Shown piece by piece: positions 5,390 through 52,640 of a stretch of DNA of 64,000 bases. The DNA is from an uncultured Halobacteria archaeon (GTDB taxonomy: Bacteria > Pseudomonadota > Gammaproteobacteria > UBA9214), in the NCBI GenBank assembly GCA_963768575.1, contig CAVYIJ010000001.1, positions 273,214 through 337,213 of the forward strand, read 5' to 3'. Both the position numbers and the translations under genes were made by a program. Below the pieces are notes generated by a model that worked only from the letters and a program-made list of their open reading frames with translations, did not search any database and was not told the origin of the DNA. Position 1 is the stretch's first letter. Each line of letters starts with the position of its first letter.

Positions 5390-5433
5390 ATAAAAAAGGC
5401 TTGCCTGCCGATCACCAATCAGCCCCTGCTGTT

Positions 5434-5510: not shown

Positions 5511-5528
5511 AGGTTACACCTCACCAAC

Positions 5529-6635: not shown

Positions 6636-6644
6636 CGGGCGGGT

Positions 6645-8256: not shown

Positions 8257-8856
8257 ATGAGATATTTTACTGGCGTGTTGCTGGCCATTGGCATTGGCCT
8301 GCTGCCGGCAACCGCATTTACCCTGGAAGTCGAATCAAACACGAAAGGAACAGGTATGGTTACAATCAACATGGAAACAAGTGCTGGCATGATCAAACTG
8401 GAACTGGACGGAAACAAGGCGCCGGCGTCCGTCGAGAACTTCGTCGCCTATGCAAAAGCAGGTCACTATGACGGCACCGTGTTTCACCGCGTAATACCCG
8501 GGTTCATGATCCAGGGCGGCGGTTTTGATGCAGACATGCAACAGAAAACGACAAACTCGCCGGTCAAGAACGAGGCAGACAACGGCCTGAAGAACGATAA
8601 CGGCACCATCGCCATGGCGCGCACCAACGACCCGCATTCCGCTACCTCGCAGTTCTTTATCAATGTGAAAGACAATGACTTTCTGAACTACAAGTCCTCC
8701 ACACCGCAAGGCTGGGGCTATACGGTGTTCGGCAAGGTGGTCGACGGGATGGATGTGGTACGAAAAATCGAGCAGGTAAAAACAGACGTGCGCGACGGCC
8801 ACCGTGATGTACCGGTCGAAAACGTGCTTATTACCAGTGTTACCGTCGAGGAATAA
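8257..8856 (+). CDS. ppiA: Periplasmic peptidyl-prolyl cis-trans isomerase A (cyclophilin type)
   Basis: Signal peptide [20 protein letters not shown] followed by the cyclophilin core [15 protein letters not shown]...[21 protein letters not shown], closely matching E. coli PpiA. RBS AGGAG lies 8 nt upstream. Start chosen inside longer ORF 8176..8856. Confidence 0.9.
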
Positions 8857-8874
8857 GCAGGGCCGGCCAGCCGC

Positions 8875-9615
8875 ATGCAAAAAACCCTGTTTATCTCCGA
8901 CCTGCACCTGGATCCTGCACGGCCGGAAATAACAACGCTGTTCCTGGATTTCCTCGAGAACAGTGCGGCATACGCCGGGGCGCTCTACATTCTTGGTGAC
9001 CTGTTCGAGGCGTGGGTCGGTGATGACGACGAATCGCCGGACAACCTGATCGTGTGCGAAGGATTGCGACAGTGCGCCGCGAACGGTACTTCCATTTATA
9101 TCATGCGCGGTAATCGCGATTTTCTGCTCGGCGAGCGCTTCGCGCGTGACAGTGGTGCGGTATTACTCGATGATCCGACTGTTATCGATCTTTACGGTGT
9201 CCGGACGCTGTTAATGCACGGCGACCTGCTTTGCACTGATGACACCGGCTACATGTCATTTCGCAAGATGGTCCGCGACCCGGCCTGGCAGGCTGACATG
9301 CTGGCCAAATCACTGGCTGAGCGGCAGGCGATCGCCCACGAAATGCGTACTGCCAGCCGCGCGCAGACAGCCGGCAAGCCGGAAAGCATTATGGATGTGA
9401 ATCCCGGCACCGTAATTGACTTCATGACCAGGCATCAGACACCGCAGCTGATCCATGGCCATACGCACAGGCCGGCGTGCCATACGTTCGACCTGGCGGG
9501 TCAGCCGGCCCGACGATTCGTGCTCGGGGACTGGTACGAGCAGGGCAGCGCCCTTGAATGCAACACCAGCGGCTGCGAGCTGACGAGCTTGCCAGTCGGG
9601 CCTGGAACATCGTAG
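8875..9615 (+). CDS. lpxH: UDP-2,3-diacylglucosamine hydrolase LpxH
   Basis: 246-aa ORF starting MQKTLFISDLHLD with calcineurin-like metallophosphatase motifs (GDLFEAW, GNRD, HGHTH). The ppiA-lpxH adjacency matches E. coli (ppiB-lpxH). Confidence 0.92.
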   Translation: MQKTLFISDLHLDPARPEITTLFLDFLENSAAYAGALYILGDLFEAWVGDDDESPDNLIVCEGLRQCAANGTSIYIMRGNRDFLLGERFARDSGAVLLDDPTVIDLYGVRTLLMHGDLLCTDDTGYMSFRKMVRDPAWQADMLAKSLAERQAIAHEMRTASRAQTAGKPESIMDVNPGTVIDFMTRHQTPQLIHGHTHRPACHTFDLAGQPARRFVLGDWYEQGSALECNTSGCELTSLPVGPGTS

Positions 9616-9650
9616 CGTGCGCTTGCCCACCCTGTAATTCCTGCAACCTG

Positions 9651-10373
9651 CTAGTCAAGCCCGAATTCAGCGTAGCCGTCCGGCAGCCTGAACAATGCGG
9701 CTGCAACCCGCAGACTGGCTTTGAAATCCACCAGTGATCTGCGATACCCCGTCCAATCGTACTCCTGCAAGGGCAGACCGTGTTCCAGGTGACGTGCCGG
9801 TGCGTAGGCATATCTGGACAAGAAACAGGGTGTCTGCACGCTTTTCGGCACTGTCTCCATGCTGTGCAACTGGCGGGCAGCGAGTACCCGCTCATACTCG
9901 GCCAGCCCTGAAACCGCCGTGTCGAGGAGACCAGGGACCACAACCAGCTGCTGGCAAATCCCGCCGTTTGCCAGTAACCGGAAGTTGACCGGTCGCTTGC
10001 CCTGTATCGCGGGTGCGGCCGGATCGGTCGTTTGCTCCTGGGACAGTTCAAGGTCCGGAGGTAATTCTGCAGCAGCCGCGCGATAGTCGATCACCAGGAT
10101 ATTCCTTTCATCGTGATTGACGCTGGAGAGCCTTCGAGTGGCCCGCTCCAGCAATACGAAATCGCCACTGTCGTTACCATCATCGATGCGTACATGCCTG
10201 TCGTTTACCAGTACCCTGACCGGATAAACATCGGTCCCCGCCTCCTGCTCTTCGTACAGCAGCATGGCCACCTCAACACCGTCGCCGGCGGGTAAATCCG
10301 CACGTGCCAGTAGCGGCAACGCCAGGCAGATACCGGCCAGTACCATCAATCGGCAAACGCGGTAACCGGTCAT
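9651..10373 (-). CDS. Hypothetical secreted protein (signal peptide, no recognised domain)
   Basis: 240-aa ORF with N-terminal signal peptide MTGYRVCRLMVLAGICLALPLLARA. Codon usage is consistent with neighbours, and its start overlaps the stop of the upstream gene (ATGA at 10370-10373). Confidence 0.6.
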   Translation of the reverse strand: MTGYRVCRLMVLAGICLALPLLARADLPAGDGVEVAMLLYEEQEAGTDVYPVRVLVNDRHVRIDDGNDSGDFVLLERATRRLSSVNHDERNILVIDYRAAAAELPPDLELSQEQTTDPAAPAIQGKRPVNFRLLANGGICQQLVVVPGLLDTAVSGLAEYERVLAARQLHSMETVPKSVQTPCFLSRYAYAPARHLEHGLPLQEYDWTGYRRSLVDFKASLRVAAALFRLPDGYAEFGLD

Positions 10374-11283
10374 TGCAGCGGCCCTGCCGCCATTTCTTCC
10401 AGCATGCGAAGCTCATCCGGGTCGAACCCGGCCAGCGCACGGGCCGGTGCGTTCAACGGTTGCTTGAGCCTGTCCATCTTGTAATCGACCAGTAAAGACC
10501 TGAATGTCGCGGCCGGTTCCAGCCCCCGTTGCTTGCAGAGATACCGGAACCAGCGTGAACCGGTCTCCACGTGACCGATTTCATCGGCATAAATCCTTTC
10601 CAGGATGGCGGCAGTCCTGTCATCGCCGCCATGCTGCAGGCGCCGGATCATCGCCGGGTAACATCGAGACCACGGGCTTCCAGCACGCGCGGAACCAGCG
10701 CCATGCGGACCAGTACATCATCGGCCGTCTTGGCGGCCATCTCCCACAGACCATCATGCGCGGGGTATTCACCGTACTTGCTACCCAGTTCCTGCAAGCG
10801 TTCGTTCAGCAGGCAAAAATGCAGCGCCTCTTCCCCGGCAACCTTCACCCAGTCGGCATAATAAGCGTCAGGTAGACCCCGGAAACGCAGTACGGCATCC
10901 CAGGCAAGGTTGATGGCATTGAATTCGATATGCGCCAATGCATGTATGAAGGCAGTCCGCCCTGTCTCGCTGCCCAGCTTCCTGCGTGGTAATTCACAGT
11001 GGTGCACCAGTGGCGGCTTGTCCGGACGCCCGGGCGAAACGAGCGCCACCGCTGGTGTGTCCGCGTCCAGTCGGCACGACCCGTCCTGCATCAGGGCCGC
11101 TGCCGCCAGCGTCCGGGAAACCTTGTCGGTGGTATCGCATGCAGCCAGGCAGGCGTGCGCCAGTTCAAACAGGTCTGCCATCAGTGCACGGTCTCCGCGA
11201 ATTGAAGCACGATTACAATATCCATAACGTTGGTTCCGGTCGGGCCGGCATTCAGGTGCGGAGCGCCGCGAGGCCACGTTCAA
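10370..11283 (-). CDS. DUF455-family ferritin-like protein, interrupted by a 1-nt frameshift near 10650
   Basis: The 211-aa ORF 10648..11283 carries the DUF455 hallmark HALAHIEFNAINLAWDAVLRF. The 93-aa ORF 10370..10651 (MIRRLQHGGDDRTAAILERIYADEIGHV) is the C-terminal continuation in the +1 frame. The junction GTTACCCGGCGATG suggests a missing C in a C-run. The true start may be the internal Met at 11181. Confidence 0.7.
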
Positions 11284-12439
11284 GATCGTTCCGCAAGTCT
11301 GTAACCGACTCCAGGCCCACGGCCAGTCGAATCAGGCCATCCCCGATCCCCGCCCCGGTACGCTGCTCCGGGGTCAGGCGTCCATGAGTGGTCGTTGCCG
11401 GATGCGTGATCGTACTCTTGGTGTCGCCGAGATTGGCGGTAATTGAAAACACCTGCGTCGCATCTATCAACGTCCAGGCATCCTTCCGGCCGCCCTTCAG
11501 GTCAAACGAAACGATGCCGCCGTAACCGGTTTGCTGCCGGCCTGCCAGTTCGTGCTGCGGATGCGAAACAAGGCCGGGATAATAGACACGTGCGACAGCG
11601 GGCTGTTGCTCCAGCCACTGTGCCAGCACCTGCGCACTTTCACAATGTGCATGCATGCGCAACGCGAGCGTTTCAAGACCCTTGAGAAACACCCAGGCAT
11701 TGAACGGGCTCATGGTCGGGCCGGCTGTGCGCAGAAAGCCGTATACATCCTTGCCAACCCGTTCGGCATCACCCACCACGGCGCCACCGATACAGCGTCC
11801 CTGGCCATCCAGGTACTTGGTTGCGGAGTGAATTACAATATCCGCACCCAGCTTGAGCGGCTGTTGCAACGCAGGCGTACAAAAGCAATTATCGACCACG
11901 AGCAGGGCTTCATGCGCCCGCGCAAGTCCGGAGAGTGCCTGTATATCCACCAGTGCCGTCAGCGGGTTTGACGGTGTTTCGAGAAACAGCAGCCGCGTTT
12001 CCTGCCTGATGGCCGCCTCCCATCCCGCCAGGTCATCGAGTGCAACGAAGGTGGTCTCGACGCCAAACCGGGCGAGGTAATTGGTAAACAGTACCGAGGT
12101 CGTACCGAAGATACTGCGTGATGACACGATATGGTCGCCCGCTTTCAGCAATCCGGCACAGGTTGCAAGGATTGCTGCCATGCCCGACGAGGTCGCAACA
12201 CAGCTATCACCGCCCTCCAGCGATGCCAGCCGTTCCTCGAACGTACGCACCGTCGGATTGGTAAAGCGGGAATAGATATTGCCGGGCTCATCCCCGGAAA
12301 AACGCGCAGCCGCCTCGGCCGCACTCCCGAACACATAACTCGATGTCGGAAAGATAGCCTCCGAATGCTCACCCTCGGCAGTCCGCCGCTGGCCGCAACG
12401 CACCGCCCTGGTTTCGAATTCAAATTCATCATACGACAT
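11252..12439 (-). CDS. metZ: O-succinylhomoserine sulfhydrylase (MetZ) / Cys-Met-metabolism PLP enzyme
   Basis: Start MSYDEFEFETRAV with RBS AGGGGAA upstream; PLP-lysine region SATKYLDGQG; metZ-purF adjacency as in Pseudomonas. The track ORF extends further upstream (to 12616) without support. Confidence 0.85.
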   Translation of the reverse strand: MSYDEFEFETRAVRCGQRRTAEGEHSEAIFPTSSYVFGSAAEAAARFSGDEPGNIYSRFTNPTVRTFEERLASLEGGDSCVATSSGMAAILATCAGLLKAGDHIVSSRSIFGTTSVLFTNYLARFGVETTFVALDDLAGWEAAIRQETRLLFLETPSNPLTALVDIQALSGLARAHEALLVVDNCFCTPALQQPLKLGADIVIHSATKYLDGQGRCIGGAVVGDAERVGKDVYGFLRTAGPTMSPFNAWVFLKGLETLALRMHAHCESAQVLAQWLEQQPAVARVYYPGLVSHPQHELAGRQQTGYGGIVSFDLKGGRKDAWTLIDATQVFSITANLGDTKSTITHPATTTHGRLTPEQRTGAGIGDGLIRLAVGLESVTDLRNDLERGLAALRT

Positions 12440-21268: not shown

Positions 21269-23413
21269 TCAGGCAAGCTGGGAAATAATGCTTTCCGCTT
21301 CCTCTTTTTGATCGGTATTACCCTGTTCGAGCACTTCATCGAGAATACTGCGTGCGCTGTCCTTGTCATCCATATCGATGTAAGCACGAGCAAGGTCCAG
21401 TTTGGTAGTCACCTCGTCATCAGTGTCCAACAGGCCTTCGCCCAAGTCTTCCTCATCACTGTCCAGCGTATCCAGGGTAAATTCGATGGTGTTCGTATCG
21501 ACCGGTTCGGCTGCGGCATCCGGCTGCGGCTTAACATCCTCCAGCCCGGAAAGATCCATATCGAATTCAGCGCCCTCTTCTGCGGCCGGGGCGCTACCGC
21601 CATACAGTGCGTTATGCGGCGACATCGCCAGACCCATGGTCGCAATTTTCTGCCAGCGCTCGTCAGTTTCGCCAAACATTTCATGGAAAGCGGCGGCTGA
21701 ATGGTCAAATGCAGCGGTATTGCCGCCCGTGTTATAAACCTCGAGTAATTTCAGGCGTGCATCGGCATTATCAGGCTTTGCCTGCAATGCCGCCAGCAAG
21801 ACATCTTCAGCCTGCTGAATACGCCCGTAAGCAAGGTAAACATCGGCCTCGGTCACGGGATCACCGTCAACATCGTCATCCATAACCGGGCTGGCATCGG
21901 CCGCCGGCATCTCTGTTTCACGGACTGACACATCCTGAACGGGGAAATCCGTTTCACGCCCACCGGTCTCGGCAAGCTGGCCTTGCATCGTCATACTGTC
22001 ATCAAGAAAACTGGATTCCGCCCTTGACCGTGTCGATGCCCACAGGAAACCACCCAGCAACATGGCGACGAGTACGCCCAGACCGGCCAGCAGCGGATTG
22101 TCCAGCAGGCGATTTACCAGCCCCGCCGCCTGGTCGGACAGCCCCAACTCGGCAGTGTCCTCTTCAGCAGGCATGACATCATCCGGTGTTTCCGCAGTTA
22201 CCCCGGCCGGCACTTTCGCATCGTCGGCAACCGGTGCCGCGGTCTGCTGTTCTTCGCTCGAGGTAATGGACTGCTGCAGCGACGCAAACTCGTTGTCCTT
22301 GAGTTCCAGCAACCGTTTCATGGTTGTGATCTGTTCTTCCAGCTCGCCGACCCGCGACTGCAATTCTTCAGACTGTGCACGACCGGCAGCGACTTCCTCG
22401 GTCGCCAGTGCCAACTGCTGCTGTAATTCCTGGTTCCCGGCTGCAGTGTCGCTGCTTGCAGGGTCGCCCGGTAATGCCGCGCCACTGACGGCATCGCTTT
22501 CAGGCGCCGTCAATTGCAGCCGCGACCCTGTATCCGCAGGCGAGACATCGGCCTCCTGTTCAGGCATGGCATCCGGCTGCTGCGTCACAGCGGCGACAGC
22601 TGGCTGCGACCTGTTTGTTTTCCACTGTTCGTACTGACGGCTCGTTTCCGCCCTCGCCTCACGCGCACTGACTGACAGGATCTCGTCCCTGCCCGGCACA
22701 TCGAGGGTAACGCCGGCCTTGAGCCGGTTGATATTGTTGTCTACAAATGCCCCCGGATTTGCGCGCTGCAGTGCCAGCATCATCTGCTGCATGGAAATAT
22801 CGGAACCCGGGCGCACTTGTTCGGCAATGTTCCACAGGGTCTCGCTGCGGCGAATAGGGCCATACTCGTCCGCTGCTGCGGGTCGCGGTGCAACGCTGAC
22901 CGTGGCTGGCGCCGTTACCGGGCGCTGAACCGGCCTGGGTGCCGGCGCACGGGCGACGGGTGCCGGGGTTGCCGGCCGGCTGACAGGTGTGGCCGGTATC
23001 GCCGGTGTCGCCGGTATGGTGACGGGGGGATCGACCAGGACGGTATATTGCCGCAACAGGCGGCCGCGCGGCCAGTCCAGTTCCAGCAGGAATTCCAGGT
23101 AGGGTTCCCGCACCAGTTCATCACTGCTGATGCGTATAATCGCGTTCCCGGCACGGTTTCTTTCAACAACCAGATTGAAATTCGACAGGATGGCGGCCCT
23201 GGACAAGCCGGCGCGCGAATGTTCCTCCAGCGTAGCCAGCGAAACCTCGATATCTTCCAGTTTTGTTCCGGCAGACGATGTCAGTTCTATGACTGCTTCC
23301 ATTGGCTGATTGAGGGCTGATCGCATATCGATCTCACCCAGCCCGAGTGCAAATGCCTGCTGGACTACCGAGAGAAGCAGCATTGCCGCTACGACAGCCG
23401 ATTTTCTAAACAT
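21269..23413 (-). CDS. fimV: FimV-like peptidoglycan-binding motility hub protein (LysM, Pro-rich linker, TM, acidic C-terminal TPR region)
   Basis: 714 aa with a signal peptide, a LysM-like segment, a Pro/Ala-rich tract (PATPAIPATPVSRPATPAPVARAPAPRP), a coiled-coil region, one TM helix and an acidic C-terminus ending ...ESIISQLA. Position between truA and asd matches Pseudomonas fimV. Confidence 0.8.
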   Translation of the reverse strand: MFRKSAVVAAMLLLSVVQQAFALGLGEIDMRSALNQPMEAVIELTSSAGTKLEDIEVSLATLEEHSRAGLSRAAILSNFNLVVERNRAGNAIIRISSDELVREPYLEFLLELDWPRGRLLRQYTVLVDPPVTIPATPAIPATPVSRPATPAPVARAPAPRPVQRPVTAPATVSVAPRPAAADEYGPIRRSETLWNIAEQVRPGSDISMQQMMLALQRANPGAFVDNNINRLKAGVTLDVPGRDEILSVSAREARAETSRQYEQWKTNRSQPAVAAVTQQPDAMPEQEADVSPADTGSRLQLTAPESDAVSGAALPGDPASSDTAAGNQELQQQLALATEEVAAGRAQSEELQSRVGELEEQITTMKRLLELKDNEFASLQQSITSSEEQQTAAPVADDAKVPAGVTAETPDDVMPAEEDTAELGLSDQAAGLVNRLLDNPLLAGLGVLVAMLLGGFLWASTRSRAESSFLDDSMTMQGQLAETGGRETDFPVQDVSVRETEMPAADASPVMDDDVDGDPVTEADVYLAYGRIQQAEDVLLAALQAKPDNADARLKLLEVYNTGGNTAAFDHSAAAFHEMFGETDERWQKIATMGLAMSPHNALYGGSAPAAEEGAEFDMDLSGLEDVKPQPDAAAEPVDTNTIEFTLDTLDSDEEDLGEGLLDTDDEVTTKLDLARAYIDMDDKDSARSILDEVLEQGNTDQKEEAESIISQLA

Positions 23414-23492: not shown

Positions 23493-24515
23493 CTAGAAAT
23501 AGTTTTTCACCAATATTTCAGCAATCTGGATACTGTTCAGAGCGGCGCCCTTGCGCACGTTATCGGCGACTATCCACAGGTCTAAACCCCTCGGATGAGA
23601 GATATCGTCACGGATCCTGCCGACATAAACAGGGTCGTGCGACGCCCCCTCGGTAACTGCCGTCGGATAACCGCCGTCCTCATGCGCGTCAATGACCTCC
23701 ACCCCGGCGGCTTGTTCAAGCAGGGCGCGTGCGTCAGTCGCTGTAATCTTGTCGCGTGTCTCGATATGCACCGCTTCCGAGTGGCCATAGAAAACCGGCA
23801 CCCGCACGGCCGTCGGATTGACCTGGATGGATTCGTCACCCATGATCTTGCGTGTTTCCCACACCATTTTCATTTCTTCCTTGGTATACCCGTTCTCCAG
23901 GAAGACATCGATTTGCGGCAGTACATTGAAGGCAATCTGCTTCGAATAGACACTGGCAACCACCGGCCTGCCATTCAGTAATTCGGCGGTCTGGCTGGCC
24001 AGTTCGCTGATCGCCTCCTTGCCGGTGCCCGAGACGGCCTGGTAGGTGCAGACGTTGATACGCTCGATACCGGCTGCATCGTGGATCGGCTTCAGCGCCA
24101 CCAGCATCTGGATGGTTGAACAATTCGGGTTGGCGATAATGCCATGCCGCGTGTATTCGGCGATTGCCTGCGGGTTGACCTCGGGTACGACCAGCGGGAT
24201 TTCGTCGTCGTAACGAAATTGAGAGGTGTTGTCGATCACGACACAACCGGCTGCCGCGGCAAGCGGCGCATATTTTTCGGAAATCGATGCGCCGGCGGAG
24301 AACAGGCCGATCTTCACCTTGCTGAAATCAAATGTATCCAGGTCTTCGACAGTCAGGTGTGTTCCCCTGAAGGGGATTCTTTTACCGGCGGAACGGGCAC
24401 TGGCAAGCGGGTAGACCTTGCCGGCCGGGAAGTCCCGTTGCTCGAGAATTTCCAGCATGGTCTCGCCAACCGCTCCGGTTGCACCGACCACGGCAACATC
24501 GTATTTATCTGACAT
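23493..24515 (-). CDS. asd: Aspartate-semialdehyde dehydrogenase
   Basis: Start MSDKYDVAVVGATGAVGETMLEIL; active-site Cys context IIANPNCSTIQMLVAL; ~340 aa. Confidence 0.93.
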   Translation of the reverse strand: MSDKYDVAVVGATGAVGETMLEILEQRDFPAGKVYPLASARSAGKRIPFRGTHLTVEDLDTFDFSKVKIGLFSAGASISEKYAPLAAAAGCVVIDNTSQFRYDDEIPLVVPEVNPQAIAEYTRHGIIANPNCSTIQMLVALKPIHDAAGIERINVCTYQAVSGTGKEAISELASQTAELLNGRPVVASVYSKQIAFNVLPQIDVFLENGYTKEEMKMVWETRKIMGDESIQVNPTAVRVPVFYGHSEAVHIETRDKITATDARALLEQAAGVEVIDAHEDGGYPTAVTEGASHDPVYVGRIRDDISHPRGLDLWIVADNVRKGAALNSIQIAEILVKNYF

Positions 24516-42648: not shown

Positions 42649-43137
42649 TTAACGGACAGCCGGTATAAACCAGGCAAACACCAGCACAGCCAGCGCCAGG
42701 GTCAACACCAGCATACCCAGTCTGTGTGGCCTTTTTTTCACGGGGCTGTTCGATTCATCCGCCCCGAAGGCAAAATGGGCAAGCGGCAAAATACTGTCTT
42801 CTACACGTCGTTCACTGCCTGAACGTCTGTCTGCATCCCGATTGCTGTCCTCGTCCGCAACTGTGTCACGACGGCCCTGCTTGCGTTCATCCGCCTGCAT
42901 TCGCGAGACGATCAGTTTCTGGTAGTCCCCCCAGCTCGACAGGCGCCAGATTTCCTCGGGCAGCAGGCTGGTCAGCGACTCCGCAGCCTGCCATGAAGAC
43001 TGGTCTTCACTGAGCTCGTCATTCAGCTTGATGCGCCCCAGTAGTATATAGCGACTGATAACAGCTGCCGGGAACGGTCCCCGAATAATGCCCTCCCGGC
43101 GTGTGTACCACAGTCTCTCGGTCTTTTCCTGTTCCAT
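42649..43137 (-). CDS. Hypothetical protein with N-terminal GYF-like (DUF4339-type) domain and C-terminal TM helix
   Basis: 162-aa ORF WYTRREGIIRGPFPAAVISRYILLGRIKLNDELSEDQSSWQ... plus a hydrophobic C-terminus LGMLVLTLALAVLVFAWFIPAV. Confidence 0.5.
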   Translation of the reverse strand: MEQEKTERLWYTRREGIIRGPFPAAVISRYILLGRIKLNDELSEDQSSWQAAESLTSLLPEEIWRLSSWGDYQKLIVSRMQADERKQGRRDTVADEDSNRDADRRSGSERRVEDSILPLAHFAFGADESNSPVKKRPHRLGMLVLTLALAVLVFAWFIPAVR

Positions 43138-43148: not shown

Positions 43149-43877
43149 TCAGTCAATCAGCCATTCGCCCATGCGTGCACGTAGCCGGATCAGTGCCTGC
43201 CCGTGTATCTGGCAAACCCGGGACTCGCTCACACCGAGTATTTCCCCGATTTCACGCAAATTGAGTTCCTCGTCATAGTAGAGAGCCATAACCAGGCGTT
43301 CGCGTTCCGGCAGACCCTTGATTTCATCAGCCAGGCCCTGCTTGAAATCACTCTTCTGCAAGGTCTCGAGCGGTTGGTTGGGTTGGCGATTGGCGGGTGG
43401 ATAGCCTTCGACAGAAAGCGTGCCGGGGTCCTCGAAACTGAAAATGCGGCAGCCGGTCGAGTCCTGCAGTATCTTGTGGTATTCCTCGAGCCCCAGTCCC
43501 ATCTCCTTTGCCACCTCGACATCACGTGCGTCACGACCGACCTCGTTTTCAATCTTGCGCACTGCCTCGGCTACTTCACGCGCCTTGCGATGAACAGACC
43601 TGGGAGTCCAGTCGGTTCTGCGAATTTCATCCAGCATTGCACCTCTAATTCTTATGCCTGCATAAGTTTCGAAACTGGCCCCCTGCTCCGGGTCAAACTT
43701 TCTGGATGCCTCGATCAGGCCAATCATGCCGGCCTGAATGAGATCGTCCGCCTGTACGCTGGCTGGCAATCGACTCATCAAGTGATAGGCAATTCGCTTT
43801 ACCAGGGGTTCATGCTGTACCACAAGCTCGTTGCTGGTAGCGAATTCAGCGCCCGATTTCACCGCATTGGATTTCAT
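43149..43877 (-). CDS. fliA: Flagellar RNA polymerase sigma-28 factor FliA
   Basis: 242-aa ORF with sigma-70 region 2 (LIQAGMIGLIEASRKFDPEQGASFETYA), region 3 and region 4 (LNLREIGEILGVSESRVCQIHGQAL). Confidence 0.93.
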   Translation of the reverse strand: MKSNAVKSGAEFATSNELVVQHEPLVKRIAYHLMSRLPASVQADDLIQAGMIGLIEASRKFDPEQGASFETYAGIRIRGAMLDEIRRTDWTPRSVHRKAREVAEAVRKIENEVGRDARDVEVAKEMGLGLEEYHKILQDSTGCRIFSFEDPGTLSVEGYPPANRQPNQPLETLQKSDFKQGLADEIKGLPERERLVMALYYDEELNLREIGEILGVSESRVCQIHGQALIRLRARMGEWLID

Positions 43878-44800
43878 AATGTTACCTCCGTTCCGCTGTT
43901 CTCATTCTGGATCATGCGCTCTACAAAAAATTCGACGTGCCCGCCTGCCTGTGCCGGATATGGCCATGACATCACCTGCCTGGCCAGATTGGTCAGCGCC
44001 ATGGCAGAACGGCTACAGGGAAAGGTACTGACGACCGATGCCCGCCCGGAGATGGCCTGTACCAGGTGCAAGTCGCGTGGAATAAAACCGGTGTAAGAAA
44101 GGGCCTGTCCATGGTTGTCGGCAAACTCATTCAGGAGTTTCCTGAATGTCGCTGCGCCCTCGCGCGCATTGCCCACCATGTTTGCCAGTATCCGGAACCT
44201 GTTGATTCCGTATTCAGTGGAAAGTATTTCTATCTGCGCGATACTTTCCGTTATCGACGCGGGTTCATTGCAGACAACGACAATAATTTCTGTGGCCGCA
44301 CGGCAGAAGCTTGCGATACATTCAGAAATCCCTGTTGCGGTATCGATGACCAGCGTATCCAGCGGCTTTTCCAGCCCGCTGAATGCCCGAACCAGCCCGA
44401 TACTTTCATGGCTACCCAGTTCCGCCAGTTGCCGTGCCCCGGACGCGGCTCGCACGACCATCAGGCCATCGGTTGTCGTCATAATGGTATCTACCAGCTG
44501 GCAATTCCCGTGGACCACATCGAACAGGGTCTGGCCGGGCTCAAGGCCCAGCAGAACATCGACATTTGCCATACCGAGGTCTGCATCCAGCAACATGGTC
44601 CTGCGGCCGGTACGAGCCAGCGCATGCGCAAGGTTCACGGAAATATTCGTCTTGCCCGCGCCGTCATTGCCGCCGGTAACAGCAACGACCTGTACCGGGC
44701 CGTGCTGGATATGCTGCGCCGCATCATCAGCCTGGCCCAGTTTCACTTCAGCCAGTTTCATGTTGCTCACTAAGGCATGCCCGCTGCGTCTGTTGTCCAT
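43874..44800 (-). CDS. fleN: Flagellar number regulator FleN/FlhG (MinD-type ATPase) with non-canonical Walker A
   Basis: Strong similarity to Pseudomonas FleN (VQVVAVTGG..GKTNISVNLA..LLDADLGMANVDVLLGL). 4-nt overlap with fliA. The start is uncertain (Met at 44800 or 44761). The deviant Walker A reads GGNDGAGKT in place of the usual GGKGGVGKT. Confidence 0.88.
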   Translation of the reverse strand: MDNRRSGHALVSNMKLAEVKLGQADDAAQHIQHGPVQVVAVTGGNDGAGKTNISVNLAHALARTGRRTMLLDADLGMANVDVLLGLEPGQTLFDVVHGNCQLVDTIMTTTDGLMVVRAASGARQLAELGSHESIGLVRAFSGLEKPLDTLVIDTATGISECIASFCRAATEIIVVVCNEPASITESIAQIEILSTEYGINRFRILANMVGNAREGAATFRKLLNEFADNHGQALSYTGFIPRDLHLVQAISGRASVVSTFPCSRSAMALTNLARQVMSWPYPAQAGGHVEFFVERMIQNENSGTEVTL

Positions 44801-45009
44801 CAATAGCTGTCCCGGATTGTCGGCAGGTGATTGCCTGCTAGACAAATTGCAACATGCATACCAAACCGCACAAATAACCGTGTAAGTGTCCCGAAGGATC
44901 ACAACTTATTGTTTTAACAGGGAGTTAACAGTGCATCGCGGGAGCGGCACACAAAAGGACTTACGTCACATTTTTGACAATTCGAACGAGCTGACGGGTA
45001 TTTGACAAG

Positions 45010-47274
45010 TTATGTGATGAATTTGTCGCCCGGAGTGTCTAGCAGGCAGGCGAAACGATCATCCGGGAGAGGTTCGCTGATATGGAATCCCTGTGCGCTG
45101 TCACAGCCGAGTTGATTGAGGATATTCAGCGCCATACTGTTTTCAACGCCCTCGGCAACAACCTTGTAACCCAGGTTATGGCCGAGATCGATTATCGATC
45201 GCACAATGGCGACATCCTGCTTGTCGAAGGCAACATCCGTAACGAATGACCGGTCAACTTTCAGGGTATGGATAGGAAGACGCTTCAGGTATGAAAGCGA
45301 CGAATACCCGGTACCGAAATCATCAATAGCGATAGTAACGCCGACATCACTGAGGCTGGCAAGTAATTCAGTGGCACGGCTGATATCCTGCATTAATGTA
45401 GCCTCGGTAATCTCAATCACCAGCTGATCACCATCAACCGAAGCTTCCTGCAATGCCAGCAGGATCTTGTCCAGCAAGCGCGGGTTCTGAAAGGAGCGCG
45501 CCGAAACATTAACAGAAACCGGAATCCTGTAGCCGCTGAACGACCATTGTCGACACTGTTTCAGCGCTGTTACCAGTACCCAGTCAGTTATACTTGTAAT
45601 CATCCCGAGCTGCTCCGCAACCGGGATGATGCGTTGCGGCATTACCAAACCTTCCAGCGGGTGCATCCAGCGTAACAGTGCCTCGGCACCGGTAATCATG
45701 GACGTTTCCAGATTGACCTGCGGCTGATAGTACAACTCGAATTCGTCATTTTCCAGCGCACTGCGGATCTGGCCCGAATAGCGCAATTGCTGCGCCTGAC
45801 TTACATCATTTGCAGGATCAAAATACTGATATGGCAGACCGTTGCGCTTGGCGCGATGCATGGCACTTTCCGCGTTGGCAAGCAATGATTCTTCATTGCT
45901 GCCATCTTCCGGGAACCGGGAGATGCCAAGCGTCAGGTTGACGCAAAGCTGCTTGTTCCGACACGCGAAGGGTATGTCGAACTTGTCGATTATTTCGGTA
46001 ATTATCCTTTCCGCAGCCTCTCGGGCATTATTTACCGGCTGCAACAGAATGCCAAACCTGTCCCCGCCGAGACGCGCAAGGGAATCCGATTCCCTGACAA
46101 TGGAGCGCAAGCGTGCAGCCACATCGCACAACAGCCTGTCGCCGATATCACGGCCCAGTGTGTCGTTGTACATTTTGAACTGGTTGATATTCAGTGAAAT
46201 CACCACAACCTGGGAGCCGGGGACACGTCTCGATGCGGCTAGCGCCATGTTTAGATGATCAGACCACAAAGCCCGGTTCGGCAGTCCGGTCAGCCTGTCG
46301 GCAGTCGACAAATGTTGCAACTGCTCCCGCTCGCATATCTGGTTCTGGATATCTTCCATCATGCAATGAATCATGGATGGTTTGCCGGGCTGCCCGGTTT
46401 CCGGGTATAACGACACCCGGTACCAGTGCATGTCGTCGTGTTCCAGCGACATCCTGACATCTGCCGTAGCAATGTGGCCACTAACCGCATCCTGCCAGGC
46501 AGACATTAACAGCTGCCGGTCTTCCTCGTGCGTGTCACCCATACAGGGCAGCGGTGATTCCATGCCGTTTTCATACCTCATTTGTAATCCATAATTGGCA
46601 TAGAGAATTCTGTTGGTATTGATGTCCACACTCCACATTATCTGCGGAATCCCTGCGAGCATATCCTCCGCACAACCCAGACGACTGGCGATATGGTCGA
46701 GCGTCAGGCGGTCATCTTCATGTACCTGCCGCCAGTATCCTTCCAGCATGATCCCCATCTCACGCAGCAGTAAACGGGTTAACAAGGTATCCAGGGCGGC
46801 CCTGTGAAGAGGATTGATTTCCAGAGCAGGTAGCGTGGTGTGTATATAGTTAATCAACAGGTTATACGCCCCAATCAACCATACGGGCCGGAAATTTCTC
46901 TGTAAATGCTGCCGACCGGCATTCAGAAGCGTCTCTTCGCGATGACAGGGATTTTCTGTAACGAGACTTTCCAGCAGGTTGCCAAGCTCGGCGCGCGCAA
47001 GCTGTCCGACATCACCGCCGTCCCGCTCGTAGGCATACAGCACATCAGCGATATCAGGATTGTCGAACAGGTAGTTGTAATAGATTTCGGCAAAGCCGGC
47101 GGTTCCCGCAGCCAGCTCGTCACGGTATTGATGCAACAGTTCCAGCTCATCGTCGGACAAACGCAGAACGTAAATATACTCGCGCGGGTGAAAGCGCAGG
47201 CCCGCGTGCGCACTGTTGCACTGCCTGGCCTCCATGCCGGTCGTTTGCCCCCTGGCTGTACTCTGTTCAGTCAT
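45010..47274 (-). CDS. Globin-coupled sensor / PAS / degenerate GGDEF (GGDRF) / EAL c-di-GMP phosphodiesterase
   Basis: 754 aa. The N-terminus has the globin-coupled-sensor proximal-His motif GRQHLQRNFRPVWLIGAYNLL. A PAS-like middle follows. The GGDEF-family domain has a GGDRF signature. The EAL domain is intact: EALLRW, DDFGTGYSSLSYL, EGVE. Confidence 0.85.
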   Translation of the reverse strand: MTEQSTARGQTTGMEARQCNSAHAGLRFHPREYIYVLRLSDDELELLHQYRDELAAGTAGFAEIYYNYLFDNPDIADVLYAYERDGGDVGQLARAELGNLLESLVTENPCHREETLLNAGRQHLQRNFRPVWLIGAYNLLINYIHTTLPALEINPLHRAALDTLLTRLLLREMGIMLEGYWRQVHEDDRLTLDHIASRLGCAEDMLAGIPQIMWSVDINTNRILYANYGLQMRYENGMESPLPCMGDTHEEDRQLLMSAWQDAVSGHIATADVRMSLEHDDMHWYRVSLYPETGQPGKPSMIHCMMEDIQNQICEREQLQHLSTADRLTGLPNRALWSDHLNMALAASRRVPGSQVVVISLNINQFKMYNDTLGRDIGDRLLCDVAARLRSIVRESDSLARLGGDRFGILLQPVNNAREAAERIITEIIDKFDIPFACRNKQLCVNLTLGISRFPEDGSNEESLLANAESAMHRAKRNGLPYQYFDPANDVSQAQQLRYSGQIRSALENDEFELYYQPQVNLETSMITGAEALLRWMHPLEGLVMPQRIIPVAEQLGMITSITDWVLVTALKQCRQWSFSGYRIPVSVNVSARSFQNPRLLDKILLALQEASVDGDQLVIEITEATLMQDISRATELLASLSDVGVTIAIDDFGTGYSSLSYLKRLPIHTLKVDRSFVTDVAFDKQDVAIVRSIIDLGHNLGYKVVAEGVENSMALNILNQLGCDSAQGFHISEPLPDDRFACLLDTPGDKFIT

Positions 47275-47565
47275 TATGTTGTTGCGCTTTTGTTTATTGA
47301 CCGGTGCAGGTAACGACTGTGCGCTTCTGCCCGATCTTTATGCTGCAAACAATAAAACAACCTGAAATTCCCGTCAGGGACATTCAGGTCAGACGAACAT
47401 TCACTGGTAACCGATAATTTGCCAGTATTTTCTTGTTTAATGTATTGTTCTAATGTGCGAAAACTATCACAGTCTGCCCGGCAAATAAAGCCGGCAAACA
47501 GCAAACGAGTAATAGTTTACGAATTAACGAAATTTGGAAGGGAATTGCCTGATAGTGTTTTAACG

Positions 47566-48987
47566 TCAGGGCTGACGCTGCATACCATATTTGCGCAGCT
47601 TCTCTACCAGGGTAGTACGCCGCATGCCAAGACGTTTGGCGGCATGGGCCACGACACCGCCTGAATCAGCAAGAGCCTGCTTGATATAGCTCACCTCAAG
47701 GCAACTCAAATGCTGCTTCAGATTCATGCCCGCACGTGGCAAGCGGGGGTCCAGATCATGTGATGTTACCGGTGAACCGACAAGTGCATCGACTGCCTGC
47801 TCCGTAACATCATCAGTATTCTGGCGAAATTTTTCCGGCAAATCACCGGCATCAACAACGCCGTACGGATGCAGAATCGCCATGCGCTCGATCAGGTTCG
47901 CCAGTTCCCTGACATTTCCCGGCCAGTTGTACTGACAGAGGGCATAAATGGCCCCCGGCGACAGGCGGACCGATCCACGTTTCTCATGCTCGATGCGGCG
48001 TACCAGCTCGTTGACCAGCAGCGGTATGTCTTCAACCCGCGCGGATAGCGACGGCATTTCTATGGGAAACACATTCAACCGATAGAAAAGGTCTTCGCGG
48101 AACTCGCCCTCCTCGATCGCCGCTTCGAGATTTTTGTGCGTGGCCGCAAGAATTCGTACATCAGATTTAATACTCTGGTTGGACCCGACCCGCTCAAAGG
48201 TGCGCTCCTGCAAAATACGCAATATTTTCACCTGCATCTGCAGGCTCATATCGCCTATTTCATCAAGAAATAACGTACCGCCTTCCGCCATCTCAAAGCG
48301 ACCCTGGCGATCATTGATCGCGCCCGTAAACGCCCCCTTCTGATGGCCAAACAATTCTGACTCCAGCAGATCAGCGGGAATCGCTCCGCAATTGACCGGA
48401 ACAAATGGCTTGTCGCGGCGGGATGAATAGTAATGCAGGTTTCTTGCAATGACTTCCTTACCGGTACCCGACTCGCCAAGTATCAGGACATTTGCATCGC
48501 TGTCAGCTACTTGCTGTATGAGTTTACGCACATCCTGAATAGCACGACTGCTGCCAACAAGGCTGCGGAACAGTTCTACCGGGCGCTGATCGGATGGTGT
48601 ACTCCGGTGGGATTGCGTATAGATTTCGGCCTGGTGCAATGCGTTGGTGAGATGCGTGTAATTCGGCGGTAATTCCAGACGCCCAAGGATGCATGATCCC
48701 GGGTCAATCGTAACTGTCGGCTCCTTGCCTTTTTTACTCAGCAGGTAAATCGGCAGGTGTTCGTCGAAGTTATGTATTTCGTTCAGGAGCGTAGCAAGTG
48801 AATGATCGGACTTGCATGAACCAAGCATGACAGCCTGTAGTTGCTCACCGTCTTCGATTACCTGCTGCCAACGTGTCGTATCGTCCACCAGCACCGGGTT
48901 GGAGCCGATAAACTTCAGAACGGATTGCAGCTCTTTTCCTGCAGCTGGATCAGCTTCTAGTACAAGTACCCTGGACTCTGTTTGCAT
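47566..48987 (-). CDS. fleQ: Sigma-54-dependent flagellar master regulator FleQ
   Basis: High identity to Pseudomonas FleQ across the AAA+ domain ([32 protein letters not shown]) and the C-terminal HTH. Start set at [13 protein letters not shown]. Confidence 0.92.
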
Positions 48988-49439
48988 TCGGCTTCCTGGA
49001 CGATTTATTACCCTGGCCCCTGCGGAGCCGTAAGGCATTGAAACGTTCTTGTTAATCCCCTAGATTTGAGACGGATATTAACCAGTCCGTCAAGGTAATG
49101 TCAAAACCATCTGTGACCTGCGTTGCAAAAACTTCCGGCGTCCTCCCGCAGAATTTTACCTGTTGTAATCAAAACGATTTTCTGTTGATAAAAACCTGCA
49201 GAGCCGGGCCCCTATCAGCACGCCCGGCGAAGACAGGCGGTCGACTACAGCCGATCACCGGTCAGCCACACGCCAGGTATCCCCCGCGACACCCGCAAGT
49301 GAGAGGCGCGTGGCGGACAGACTGTCATAATTTTGCCACTTTGTGCGCGAGACCTCAAAACCGGGTTAAATCCGGTGATTGAACAGACGATATCTTAAAT
49401 GAGCCCGGCACAGACCGGAGGTAACAATGCTCAGGAATA

Positions 49440-49767: not shown

Positions 49768-49843
<76 letters not shown>

Positions 49844-49857
49844 TTTAACACTGTATA

Positions 49858-49934
49858 GCCCCGGTAGCTCAGCTGGATAGAGCAAGCGCCTCCTAAGCGC
49901 TAGGTCGGACGTTCGAATCGTCTCCGGGGCACCA
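49858..49934 (+). tRNA. tRNA-Arg (anticodon CCT)
   Basis: 77 nt GCCCCGGTAGCTCAGCTGGATAGAGCAAGCGCCTCCTAAGCGCTAGGTCGGACGTTCGAATCGTCTCCGGGGCACCA; anticodon loop CTCCTAA. Confidence 0.88.
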
Positions 49935-50424
49935 ACTAATTCCCCCGACCGTACAGACGGTTCGAACGTCCGACGTTTCTATCAGCCCCGTTCGACAAGC
50001 GGCGTAAGCCGCGCAGAACGTCGTCGCGAAGCGACGGCGGCCCCGAAGGGGTGAGGCCCAAAGGGCCGAATAATCGTCTCCGGGGCACCAACTAATTCCC
50101 CCGACCGTACAGACGGTTCGAACGTCCGATGCGAGGCGCATGGCGATGCGCCGAGTAGAATCAGTCCCGTTCGACAAGCGGCTTGTCGTTCCCGCGCGTC
50201 CCTGTGCTCCACGACATAAGTACATCCCTGTACAAAAGCCGCGCACGACTGCAGGGATGCAGGAGGTAGAGCAACGCAGGGAACAGTTGCCGAGAACGTC
50301 GTCGCGAAGCGACGGCGGCCCCGAAAGGGCTCAGGGCATCATGCCCTGAGTAGTATCGAGCCCGAATAATCGTCTCCGGGGCACCAACTAATTCCCCCGA
50401 CCGTACAGACGGTCCGAACGTTTC
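49916..50424 (+). repeat. Three direct copies of a ~60-bp unit (last ~20 nt of tRNA-Arg plus ~40 nt downstream) with partly conserved hairpin-rich spacers (att-site-like scars)
   Basis: Copies at 49916-49975, 50067-50129 and 50363-50421 share CGAAT(A)ATCGTCTCCGGGGCACCAACTAATTCCCCCGACCGTACAGACGGTTCGAACGT. Spacers share GAACGTCGTCGCGAAGCGACGGCGGCCCCGAA(A)GGG and TCAG(C/T)CCCGTTCGACAAGCGGC. Confidence 0.8.
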
Positions 50425-50426: not shown

Positions 50427-52640
50427 TCAAGTATTGCGCCGCGCGCCGATGACATTCTGCAACTGCCCGATCCGGGTCAGCACCCGGCTTAACTGGCCGA
50501 TATCGGTAATCTCCAGCGTCAGGTTCATACGCGCTATCCCGTCACTGGCATCCGTCCTGGTATTGGCGCCGACCAGGTTGACCTTTTCGTTCGCCAGCAG
50601 TGCGGTAATGTCACGCAACAAACCGGACCGATCGTATGCTTCTACGATGATATCGACCTGGTAGCCCGCTTCATCGGGCAGCCCCCAGTCGACTGCTATC
50701 AGGCGATCGCGATCGTCACCCTGGAGTCGCAGAATATTGCCGCAGTCCTGCCTGTGGATCGACACGCCACGCCCGCGCGTGATGTAACCGATAATGGGAT
50801 CACTGGGCACCGGCCGGCAACAACGTGCGGTCGTCGTCATCAGGTTACCGACGCCCTGGATATCAAATTCACCCGCTCCGGTGTCCCTTGTCTTGCGTCT
50901 GGTCCGCGACTGTTGCGGTTTCAGGGTGTCCTCACGAGGGATCAGCTCACTCAGGGAACGCGTCAGCTGGCCGGTCGTGATTTCGCTGCTGCCCAATGCT
51001 GCGAGAAACTCGTCAACCTGCCTGCCCCTGAAACGTTCCGCAATCTTTTCAACCGGAATATCCGAAATACCCACACGCTGCAGTTCCTTGTCCAGAATTG
51101 CACGTCCCGCAGCCAGGTTGTGCTCATAATCCTGACGCTTGAACCAGGCACGCACCCGTGAGCGTGCCCTCGAGGTATGCAGGTAGCCTAGGTGACTATT
51201 AAGCCAGTCTCTGCTCGGCCTGCCCTGTTTCGAGGTCAGAATTTCCACCTGTTCGCCATTGTTCAATTGCCAGGTCAAGGGCACTATCCTCCCGTTGACT
51301 TTCGCGCCACGGCAACGATGGCCAACCTCGGTATGCACCGCATAGGCAAAATCCAGTGGTGTCGCCCCCTGCGGCAGGTCTATGATCCGTCCCTGTGGCG
51401 TCAACACATAGACGCGATCCTGGAATGCTTCAGATTTGAACCGGTCAACGAAGTCGGCGGCTGTGCGCTCCTCTTCCTTCCATTCCAGCAACTGGCGCAA
51501 CCAGGTAATTTTCTCCTCGTACCCCCTGTCGGGGCCACCGCCTTCCTTGTAGCGCCAGTGTGCCGCAACCCCCAGCTCTGCATGACGATGCATTTCATAT
51601 GTTCTGATCTGCACTTCAAGATTCAGGCCGTCCGGACCGACCACAGCGGTATGGAGCGAGCGATAGAGGTTTTCCTTGGGGTTGGCGATATAGTCGTCGA
51701 ACTCTTTCGGGATATGGCGCCACAGGCCGTGCACGAGCCCGAGCGCTGCGTAGCAGTCTTTTTCCTCGTCGACCAGTATCCGCACGGCGCGCGTATCGAA
51801 AACCTGGTCGAAACTGAGATGTTTGCGCTGCATCTTCCGCCAGATACTGTAAATATGCTTGGTGCGGCCGGTAACAGTCGCATTAATACCGGCAGCTGCA
51901 AGTTCCTGCTCGATTATTTCGATAACGCGCAATATATAGGCTTCAAGTGATTCACGGTCCCCCTCCAGCTGTTTCGCGATCGACTGGTAGGCCTCCGGCT
52001 CCAGGTAGCGCATCGACAGGTCTTCCAGCTCCCACTTGATCTGCCAGATGCCAAGGCGATTGGCGAGCGGCGCGTAAATATCCAGCGTCTCCTGCGCAAT
52101 TCGTTTGCGGCGATCCGCGTCCAGGTGGGCCAGGGTTCGCATGTTATGCAGCCTGTCCGCCAGCTTGATCAATACCACGCGCACATCTTCCGCCATTGCA
52201 AGCAGCAGCTTGCGCAGGCTCTCGGCCTGGTCCGCCTGGTTGCCGTCCACGGTGTCTTGCTGGCGAAACTCTCCAATGCGCTCCATCTTGGTCACGCCAT
52301 CAACCATTCGCGCAATGGTCGGTCCGAAATCGTTACCCAGGTCGGTCAGTGTTATGGACGTATCCTCGACTACGTCATGCAGCATGGCAGCGACGAGTGT
52401 CTCGTAGTCAAGTTTAAGTTCATGAAGAATTTCAGCGACTGCCAGCGCATGCAGATAGTAGGGTTCGCCGGACTTGCGAAGTTGCGCATGATGCGCAGTG
52501 CAGGCAACCTCGATCGCACGGCTTAATGCTTCGCCATGCTCGGCGCTGTGCCCGGCCAGCAGTGCATCGACCCGCAATTGTGCGGTCGCATCGATGCATC
52601 CTGCTCCTGAGCCACCCTGATTGCCGGTCACTTCCACCAA
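50427..52640 (-). CDS. relA: RelA/SpoT-family (p)ppGpp synthetase/hydrolase
   Basis: 737 aa. HD motif intact (MLHDVVEDT). The synthetase region is very close to RelA (KHIYSIWRKMQRK...AELGVAAHWRYKEGG). TGS and ACT regions present. No rpoZ upstream. Confidence 0.9.
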   Translation of the reverse strand: MVEVTGNQGGSGAGCIDATAQLRVDALLAGHSAEHGEALSRAIEVACTAHHAQLRKSGEPYYLHALAVAEILHELKLDYETLVAAMLHDVVEDTSITLTDLGNDFGPTIARMVDGVTKMERIGEFRQQDTVDGNQADQAESLRKLLLAMAEDVRVVLIKLADRLHNMRTLAHLDADRRKRIAQETLDIYAPLANRLGIWQIKWELEDLSMRYLEPEAYQSIAKQLEGDRESLEAYILRVIEIIEQELAAAGINATVTGRTKHIYSIWRKMQRKHLSFDQVFDTRAVRILVDEEKDCYAALGLVHGLWRHIPKEFDDYIANPKENLYRSLHTAVVGPDGLNLEVQIRTYEMHRHAELGVAAHWRYKEGGGPDRGYEEKITWLRQLLEWKEEERTAADFVDRFKSEAFQDRVYVLTPQGRIIDLPQGATPLDFAYAVHTEVGHRCRGAKVNGRIVPLTWQLNNGEQVEILTSKQGRPSRDWLNSHLGYLHTSRARSRVRAWFKRQDYEHNLAAGRAILDKELQRVGISDIPVEKIAERFRGRQVDEFLAALGSSEITTGQLTRSLSELIPREDTLKPQQSRTRRKTRDTGAGEFDIQGVGNLMTTTARCCRPVPSDPIIGYITRGRGVSIHRQDCGNILRLQGDDRDRLIAVDWGLPDEAGYQVDIIVEAYDRSGLLRDITALLANEKVNLVGANTRTDASDGIARMNLTLEITDIGQLSRVLTRIGQLQNVIGARRNT

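Follow-up and report, generated by a model that had tools for sequence, protein, structure and literature searches.

Why should a gene for a putative gas-responsive enzyme of second-messenger breakdown lie among the regulators of a flagellum whose structural genes are absent from its surroundings? This question is raised by a 64-kb stretch of DNA (64,000 nucleotides of contig CAVYIJ010000001.1, called the window throughout), in which one gene on the minus strand is predicted to encode a phosphodiesterase (PDE) that hydrolyses c-di-GMP (cyclic dimeric guanosine monophosphate). A sequence-only reading had placed this gene between fleQ and the pair fleN-fliA, and the list of open reading frames (ORFs) together with Pfam and NCBIfam matches confirms that order. 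It is well established that the activity of FleQ is modulated by c-di-GMP and by FleN. We favour an answer in which the protein is a c-di-GMP-specific, PDE-only relative of the Paenibacillus enzyme DcpG that is plausibly heme-gated in this copy and tunes c-di-GMP for FleQ, and we assign this reading a probability of roughly 0.7. Catalysis, heme binding, the response to gases and every other function named here are predictions made from sequence.

Domain architecture of the predicted phosphodiesterase

The gene and its predicted domains occupy the following positions.

45010-47274, minus strand: PDE gene, encoding a 754-amino-acid (aa) protein with sensor globin, PAS, degenerate GGDEF and EAL domains (ORF list; Pfam EAL and GGDEF; AlphaFold 2 (AF2) model)
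46654-47187, minus strand: sensor globin (residues ~30-155) and long linker helix (155-207) (homologues, profile, structure search)
46345-46647, minus strand: PAS domain, residues ~210-310 (family profile, homologues, AF2 model)
45823-46305, minus strand: degenerate GGDEF domain, residues 324-484 (Pfam, motifs; GGDRF, RxxD kept)
45040-45798, minus strand: EAL domain, residues 493-745 (Pfam, motifs; catalytic set complete)

The two C-terminal domains are recognized directly by Pfam, EAL (PF00563) at residues 502-735 with 256 bits and GGDEF (PF00990) at residues 324-479 with 138 bits. The EAL domain is intact, as had been proposed, with every catalytic residue present (EALLR 531, N589, EITE 621, DDFGTG 651, KVD 672, EGVE 708 and QGF 728). 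The fold of the GGDEF domain is likewise present, and its active site reads GGDRF at residues 403-407, where arginine replaces the metal-binding catalytic glutamate; the earlier suspicion that this domain is non-catalytic is upheld by that substitution. The I-site is intact, with RESD at residues 394-397 (RxxD) in the canonical position five residues ahead of GGDRF.

The full-length AF2 model has a mean predicted local distance difference test score (pLDDT) of 91.2. In a fold search of the PDB its GGDEF-EAL body superposes best on MorA, PA0575, RbdA and DosP, and for superposition on the EAL domains of MorA, MucR and BifA the template-modelling (TM) scores are 0.92-0.96, with 42-46% identity. 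Residues 1-24 are disordered and no transmembrane segment is predicted. The protein is thus expected from its sequence to be soluble and cytoplasmic, and it is probably dimeric.

The sensor-globin fold of the N-terminal domain can be considered settled on the basis of orthologues, a PDB profile search and the AlphaFold model. The Pfam family Protoglobin (PF11563) is matched by 42 of 45 homologues gathered in two database searches, with a best E-value of 1e-39, and the Thiohalobacter and Thiogranum orthologues score 42.8 and 62.9 bits. A shallow profile built only from the window's clade (described below) found a globin in the PDB at no better than E=0.57; a clean globin-only alignment was used instead, and the resulting family profile matches GsGCS (2w31) with E=3e-5 and 8h17 with E=1e-4. 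In the profile alignment to HemAT (1or4), Y66 of the window protein falls on Tyr70 (position B10) and H123 on His123 (position F8), in agreement with the proximal histidine ('GRQH') named by the sequence-only reading. The AF2 model of residues 1-207 (pLDDT 90.2) retrieves sensor globins as all of its top 22 Foldseek matches in the PDB, with HemAT first (TM 0.80, root-mean-square deviation (rmsd) 2.4 Å) and AfGcHK, GsGCS, Tlr1989, BpeGReg and DosC among the others. Across orthologues, the B10 tyrosine and a YNYLFDNPDIADVLY..ER.GG block are essentially invariant. The N-terminal module is rare, being found in 83 representatives of 1.84 billion at E<=1e-3, and in the protein collection searched, which does not include the window genome, the best match is 52% identical.

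No PAS model in Pfam matches the window protein. A family profile matches the PAS structure 3eeh (E=1.7e-5), PAS_4 or PAS_3 is matched in 21 and 17 homologues, respectively, and residues 212-308 of the AF2 model form a five-strand alpha/beta segment. The order globin, PAS, GGDEF, EAL proposed for the protein therefore stands, with globin and PAS established through orthologues, PDB profiles and the AF2 model.

Orthologous loci and the reduced flagellar cluster

A scan of species-representative genomes recovered 80 orthologous loci, all from Thiohalobacterales-like Gammaproteobacteria, and synteny mapping divided them into two groups. The first, the window's clade, comprises about 30 loci in which the PDE and the window protein share 60-80% identity, and it is monophyletic in the gene tree (built from PDE proteins by quick neighbour joining, as opposed to a species tree). 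Every clade locus long enough to show it retains the order fleQ-PDE-fleN-fliA-orf162. Flagellar structural genes are absent within ±10 kb in all 32 loci of this reduced form, and absence of flagellar genes refers throughout to the locus and to the 64-kb window. The members of the island other than the PDE gene are arranged in the window as follows.

47566-49038, minus strand: fleQ, sigma-54 enhancer-binding master regulator, probable start at 48987 (Pfam, match to PDB entry 8p53)
43874-44902 as ORF, minus strand: fleN (flhG), MinD/ParA-type ATPase and FleQ antagonist (Pfam/NCBIfam)
43149-43877, minus strand: fliA, sigma-28 (NCBIfam FliA, 311.7 bits; threshold 201)
42649-43137, minus strand: orf162, a conserved 162-aa ORF that follows fliA in every reduced locus

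In the second group, which includes Thiogranum and Thiohalobacter, the PDE shares 44-51% identity with the window protein and its gene lies between fliK and fliL. The locus of T. thiocyanaticus reads fleR-fliE-F-G-H-I-(J)-K-PDE, that of a Thiogranum metagenome-assembled genome (MAG) reads PDE-fliL-M-N-O-P-Q-R-flhB-flhA, and the cultured T. longum continues with flhA-flhF-fleN-fliA-cheY-cheZ-cheA-cheB-motA-motB. Upstream of the PDE gene, fliK was found in 46 loci, and fliL, fliM or fliN was found downstream in 30-33. The PDE gene of this group stands ~9.4 kb downstream of fleQ, inside one fleQ-to-motB supercluster. Lack of linkage to fleQ in related genomes would have spoken against the proposed coupling to FleQ; linkage is present in every related locus long enough to reveal it, with the two genes adjacent in about 30.

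The PDE gene is therefore an old, order-wide member of the Thiohalobacterales polar-flagellum gene cluster. Judging from gene order, its ancestral slot would have been the one between fliK and fliL, within a supercluster of the Pseudomonas type. We infer that the arrangement in the window is a remnant left after removal of the fleS-fliK, fliL-flhF and cheY-motB blocks; ~20 flagellar structural genes that surround the PDE gene in relatives are missing here. ORF scans of the window confirm that, at the locus, flhF and flhA do not precede fleN and fleSR does not follow fleQ, and these absences would be explained because those three blocks were removed. On this reading the regulators were not shuffled; their ancestral order is kept and it is the flanking blocks that have gone.

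One locus (L069) represents a further reduction, which arose independently and had the same consequences at the molecular level. Its PDE is 82% identical to those of three Thiogranum-like loci (L054, L056 and L057) and nests inside the Thiogranum-like group in the tree, and its FliA is 88% identical to that of T. longum. At 5249-11882 of this locus the order is fleQ-PDE-fleN-fliA followed by an orf162-like gene. The PDE carries a GADQF motif and asparagine at F8, and fleN is cut to 135 aa with no Walker A motif.

Changes in the PDE protein track the reduction of the locus. The EAL catalytic residues are kept in all full-length orthologues save for a few single conservative substitutions, and the RxxD site is retained in nearly all. 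The fourth residue of the GGDEF motif is glutamine, arginine or histidine in 33 of 33 reduced loci; in the other 49 it is glutamate in 47 and aspartate in two. The motif of the Thiogranum/Thiohalobacter proteins is mostly GGDEF, with some GSDEF or DGDEF, and keeps the catalytic glutamate. Because the motif at the ancestral slot keeps this residue, the ancestral enzyme was plausibly bifunctional and DcpG-like. The F8 histidine is present in 43 of 49 non-reduced loci and in 15 of 32 reduced ones, where the 17 replacements are leucine (eight), arginine (five), tyrosine (three) and asparagine (one). Heme-based gas sensing, which had been proposed for the protein, is accordingly not a conserved property of the clade.

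The fleQ product matches the FleQ, Sigma54_activat and HTH_8 domains of Pfam, and position 48987 is an internal 'MQTESRV' start within its ORF. The fleN product is called a ParA/MinD ATPase by Pfam and NCBIfam, and its true start is most likely an ATG at 44800 or 44761. The fliA gene overlaps the fleN stop by 4 nt and is translationally coupled to fleN. Identity of orf162 across the clade is 43-55%, and the ORF has no match in Pfam or NCBIfam; by eye its N-terminus resembles a GYF domain (WYxxxxGxxxGP), and a hydrophobic helix lies at its C-terminal end. In T. longum orf162 is not next to fliA, where cheY stands. The complete minus-strand order is spoT/relA (50427-52640), fleQ, the PDE gene, fleN, fliA, orf162, queA, tgt, yajC and secDF. 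A Pfam search with every large ORF of the 64-kb window found no flagellar structural, chemotaxis or motor gene; housekeeping genes and FimV were found.

Two plus-strand tRNAs lie at 49768-49934, between spoT/relA and fleQ. Positions 49910-50421 contain a 60-nt unit in three copies (92-100% identical), the first of which begins inside the 3' end of tRNA-Arg(CCT), and two more repeat families are interleaved, all within the 500 bp that separate the tRNAs from the spoT stop. These repeats look like scars of repeated integration and excision at the tRNA.

Several individual loci have features of their own. One (L083) carries, at 1203-6800, fleQ, a FliG-like ORF (3267-4028; 46% identical to T. thiocyanaticus FliG) and the PDE gene, and may be an intermediate or a different rearrangement. 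In MAG GCA_947259895.1 (L002, 1653-3936) the PDE gene is frameshifted in the globin domain to give overlapping ORFs of 195 and 602 aa, which reflects either an assembly error or a pseudogene. The T. longum locus (L084) has a 470-aa ORF with no Pfam match (2571-3983) inserted between the PDE gene and fliL. Two MAGs labelled 'Halobacteria archaeon' (L004, JABDRC010000256.1; L006, CAWKAE010000001.1) carry the gammaproteobacterial locus fleQ-PDE-fleN-fliA-queA-tgt on contigs of 34 kb and 230 kb, respectively, and these bins are probably mislabelled or contaminated.

Regulatory signals and alternative readings

The spacers of the island contain the following candidate signals.

44848-44863, minus strand: sigma-54 -24/-12 promoter TGGTATGCATGTTGCA upstream of fleN (consensus scan, conservation)
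44965-44978, no strand assigned: palindrome GTCAAAAATGTGAC (GTCA-N6-TGAC), candidate FleQ site, 115 bp upstream of the -24 element
47361-47378, minus strand: terminator-like hairpin and T-run between fleQ and the PDE gene (consensus scan)
49075-49104, minus strand: sigma-70-like promoter (TTGACA-18-TAATAT) upstream of fleQ (consensus scan only)

The predicted sigma-54 promoter before fleN matches the consensus at 9-11 of 12 positions in each of 28 clade loci (28 of 28). The palindrome occurs in 19 of these 28, at 114-127 bp (mostly 114-117) from the promoter, and the whole window holds three GTCA-N6-TGAC palindromes. Sigma-54-like matches are no commoner window-wide than expected by chance, such that position and conservation alone single out the fleN promoter; in the fleQ-PDE spacer, which is of similar length and served as a control, nothing comparable was seen. 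The outer half-sites of the palindrome are those of the proposed FleQ box of P. aeruginosa, GTCaNTAAAtTGAC (PMC6120874). In P. putida, fleN-fliA are driven by sigma-N promoters that lie in front of flhA and flhF and are activated by FleQ and repressed by FleN (PMC6424431). Given the match to the FleQ box and this precedent, control of fleN-fliA-orf162 by FleQ and sigma-54 appears likely by analogy.

The alignment of the window FleQ with P. aeruginosa FleQ (8p53, E=1e-164) spans the entire protein. Conserved in it are the LFRS, ARN and NELxxR (ExxxR) positions, which we take to be the c-di-GMP contacts R144, R185, N186, E330 and R334 of the P. aeruginosa protein.

In flagellated relatives, sigma-54 promoters precede fliK and fliL, and the PDE gene is probably transcribed there as part of the fliK message. 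We considered whether the fleN promoter in reduced loci is a retained fliL promoter: each is a sigma-54 promoter immediately behind the PDE gene, but they disagree in sequence and in spacing, and no homology could be established. Blocks around the hairpin at 47361-47378 are partly conserved in two clade loci (L001 and L002). The fleQ-PDE spacer also holds a CRP/Vfr-like site, TGTGATAGTTTTCGCACA, at ~47463-47480 on the minus strand, whose block is partly conserved in the same two loci; the exact TGTGATAGTTTTCGCACA pattern was not found in other clade loci. A sigma-28 scan of the window gave 21 weak matches against 10.6 expected (three mismatches allowed), none of them convincing near the island. 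One sigma-28-like element (23560-23586, minus strand) has a perfect -10 sequence (GCCGATAA) and a partial -35 sequence (TTTAG), ~150 nt upstream of a FimV/HubP-like gene (21269-23413).

These observations can be combined into a regulatory circuit. A signal would pass from the globin through the helix at residues 155-207 and the PAS domain to the GGDEF-EAL pair, and the EAL domain would hydrolyse c-di-GMP and lower its level. This drop is expected to release FleQ, whose c-di-GMP contact residues are conserved, from inhibition by c-di-GMP. The regulator would then act at the sigma-54 promoter and the upstream palindrome, just past the PDE stop, to activate fleN-fliA-orf162, and FleN would feed back on FleQ. 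The dead GGDEF domain with its intact RxxD site may bind guanosine triphosphate (GTP) or c-di-GMP allosterically, by analogy to PdeA/CC3396 and BifA. Because F8 histidine and B10 tyrosine are both present in the window protein, heme-based gating of the EAL domain by O2, NO or CO is the most likely input of this copy, a prediction that does not extend across the clade. Heme binding and gas sensing by this copy are accordingly plausible, not secure. The earlier proposal of gas-dependent flagellar gene expression fares unevenly: linkage to FleQ and the c-di-GMP residues support its first half, and flagellar gene expression as the output is doubtful, given that the structural blocks are gone.

Several findings weigh against the circuit as drawn. 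The window protein itself matches Protoglobin (residues 35-183) with 19.2 bits, under the cut-off of 25, and the near relatives of the window L002, L004 and L007 carry tyrosine at F8; given the loss of the F8 histidine in 17 of 32 reduced loci, these near relatives included, the globin may act without heme. No promoter belonging to the PDE gene was found in scans of the fleQ-PDE spacer, and a sigma-54/FleQ-type promoter of its own is missing upstream of the gene in all 30 clade loci scanned. The GTCA-N6-TGAC palindrome was not found at the flagellar promoters of the Thiogranum or Thiohalobacter loci, so its assignment to FleQ stays provisional. The feedback arm is also in question. All FleN orthologues of the clade but two (L026 and L027) carry GGKGG(T/V/I)GK(T/S); in the window FleN the motif reads GGNDGAGKT (44650-44680, codons ~41-50), with the signature lysine of the deviant Walker A (equivalent to K11 of MinD) lost and one glycine changed to aspartate. 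This change may impair ATP-dependent dimerization and antagonism of FleQ.

The strongest alternative concerns the output of the circuit. It holds that the flagellum has been lost and that fleQ-PDE-fleN-fliA now controls non-flagellar genes for adhesins, exopolysaccharide or pili, with the PDE setting the state of FleQ for surface behaviour, and we give it close to an even chance. All three structural and chemotaxis blocks that flank the four regulators in relatives have gone from the locus, the regulators themselves still stand in the ancestral order, and flagellar genes are seen neither within ±10 kb in the 32 reduced loci nor in the window. The same reduction arose independently in L069, with its truncated fleN, the Walker A motif of the window FleN is degenerate, and decay of the diguanylate cyclase site and of the heme ligand is confined, wholly or for the most part, to reduced loci. 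There is also precedent in P. putida, where FleQ, with FleN and c-di-GMP, regulates adhesin and cellulose genes (PMC6424431). However, the fliA product is 79-93% identical across the clade and the FleN of most members has a canonical Walker A motif, a conservation that would be just as likely with the flagellar genes located in another part of the genome. A search with Thiogranum FlhA bears on this point only in part: all 120 of the best matches listed were Thiogranum-type proteins at least 83% identical, so the clade was not reached. Loss of motility, moreover, need not bring loss of the genes, as Thiolapillus brandeum (G+C 56.3%) is non-motile and carries a full flagellar cluster in one region (PMC4136832). 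This species was considered as a model for the window and set aside, there being no evidence of a tie.

A fuller version of this alternative, to which we give somewhat less than an even chance, is that the island outlived the flagellum and now runs a flagellum-independent, c-di-GMP-controlled sigma-54/sigma-28 cascade. Two Thiohalobacterales lineages, the window's clade and L069, would each have deleted all structural, export, chemotaxis and motor genes of the supercluster and retained FleQ, sigma-28 and the globin-coupled enzyme dedicated to them, and this enzyme would have turned from a bifunctional heme-gated form into a PDE-only one that has lost its heme ligand in half of the lineages.

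A second alternative concerns the input, and we consider it less likely than not. The globin would serve as a heme-free scaffold for dimerization and signal relay, and the PDE would be controlled by PAS or by a nucleotide at the dead GGDEF domain (GTP at the A-site, c-di-GMP at RxxD). Precedents exist both for globin sensor domains without heme (RsbR) and for GGDEF-EAL enzymes activated by GTP (PdeA/CC3396). The loss of the F8 histidine in more than half of the reduced loci, while the rest of the globin domain including YNYLFDNPDIADVLY..ER.GG stays highly conserved, is what such a scaffold would predict, and the conserved RxxD and the sub-threshold Protoglobin score of the window protein fit as well. 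The window protein nevertheless keeps H123 and Y66, aligned with the HemAT residues, and its model superposes on heme-bound sensor globins with an rmsd of 2.4-2.9 Å. For this copy, then, we continue to favour heme gating.

The last alternative, a bifunctional enzyme like DcpG or a catalytically silent receptor like FimX or LapD, is very improbable: the domain order does match DcpG and the tandem GGDEF-EAL fold also matches LapD, but GGDRF lacks the catalytic glutamate needed by a cyclase, and FimX and LapD are without the EAL catalytic residues that are complete here and kept across the 80 orthologues (with a few single conservative substitutions).

Comparison with known systems

Globin-coupled c-di-GMP enzymes and the switch that FleQ forms with FleN and c-di-GMP were already known. 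New are a globin-coupled EAL enzyme that is predicted to be PDE-only and has a PAS domain inserted after its globin; the position of its gene between fliK and fliL throughout an order; and an island of regulators only, which arose twice when all flagellar genes around it were lost and in which decay of the cyclase site is correlated with decay of the heme ligand. The two lineages amount to a natural experiment. Each of them has an inactivated cyclase motif and an intact EAL site; the heme ligand has disappeared from L069 and from many members of the window's clade, though others keep it. The comparison therefore shows which activity matters to FleQ once flagellar genes leave the locus. A four-gene island with a predicted sigma-54 promoter and a candidate enhancer also offers a setting in which FleQ and sigma-28 can be tested apart from flagellar genes, and in which heme-free globin signalling can be examined.

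Globin cyclases (DosC, BpeGReg and HemDGC) and a globin HD-GYP PDE have already been characterized. The nearest relative in architecture is DcpG of Paenibacillus dendritiformis, in which, as here, a sensor globin at the N-terminus precedes the GGDEF and EAL domains of a single chain. In DcpG both activities are present, and the output is selected by the gas ligand that the heme carries (PMC10882959). The window protein differs in its dead GGDEF domain, in the PAS domain between globin and GGDEF, and in the location of its gene in a flagellar cluster. The Thiogranum and Thiohalobacter orthologues with the catalytic glutamate are closer functional analogues of DcpG and may themselves be bifunctional.

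The heme-based O2 sensors DosP (PdeO) and DosC (DgcO) control c-di-GMP in E. coli, and the PAS-GGDEF-EAL body of DosP and the globin of DosC are both structural matches to the window protein. E. coli splits the work between a heme-PAS protein, DosP, and a globin cyclase, DosC, neither of them flagellar-linked, whereas here a globin is fused to the PDE. The globins of HemAT, AfGcHK, GsGCS and BpeGReg share a common fold with the N-terminal domain (TM 0.72-0.83; 15-19% identity), with F8 histidine and B10 tyrosine aligned. Their outputs are a methyl-accepting chemotaxis protein, a kinase or a cyclase, and the family of the window protein has its own YNYLFDNPDIADVLY..ER.GG block and tolerates loss of F8.

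With regard to the catalytic body, MorA (4rnh) is the top structure match and BifA (8arv), also among the closest structures, is 45% identical. BifA likewise has a degenerate motif (GGDQF), functions solely as a PDE and influences flagellar behaviour. Both proteins differ from the window protein in being membrane-anchored, in lacking a globin and in having genes outside the flagellar cluster.

The Pseudomonas scheme fleQ...flhA-flhF-fleN-fliA shares with the window a FleQ orthologue and a sigma-54 promoter with a FleQ-box-like site ahead of fleN-fliA. It differs in that the window has no flhA or flhF, places the promoter directly before fleN, and carries the PDE gene between fleQ and fleN.

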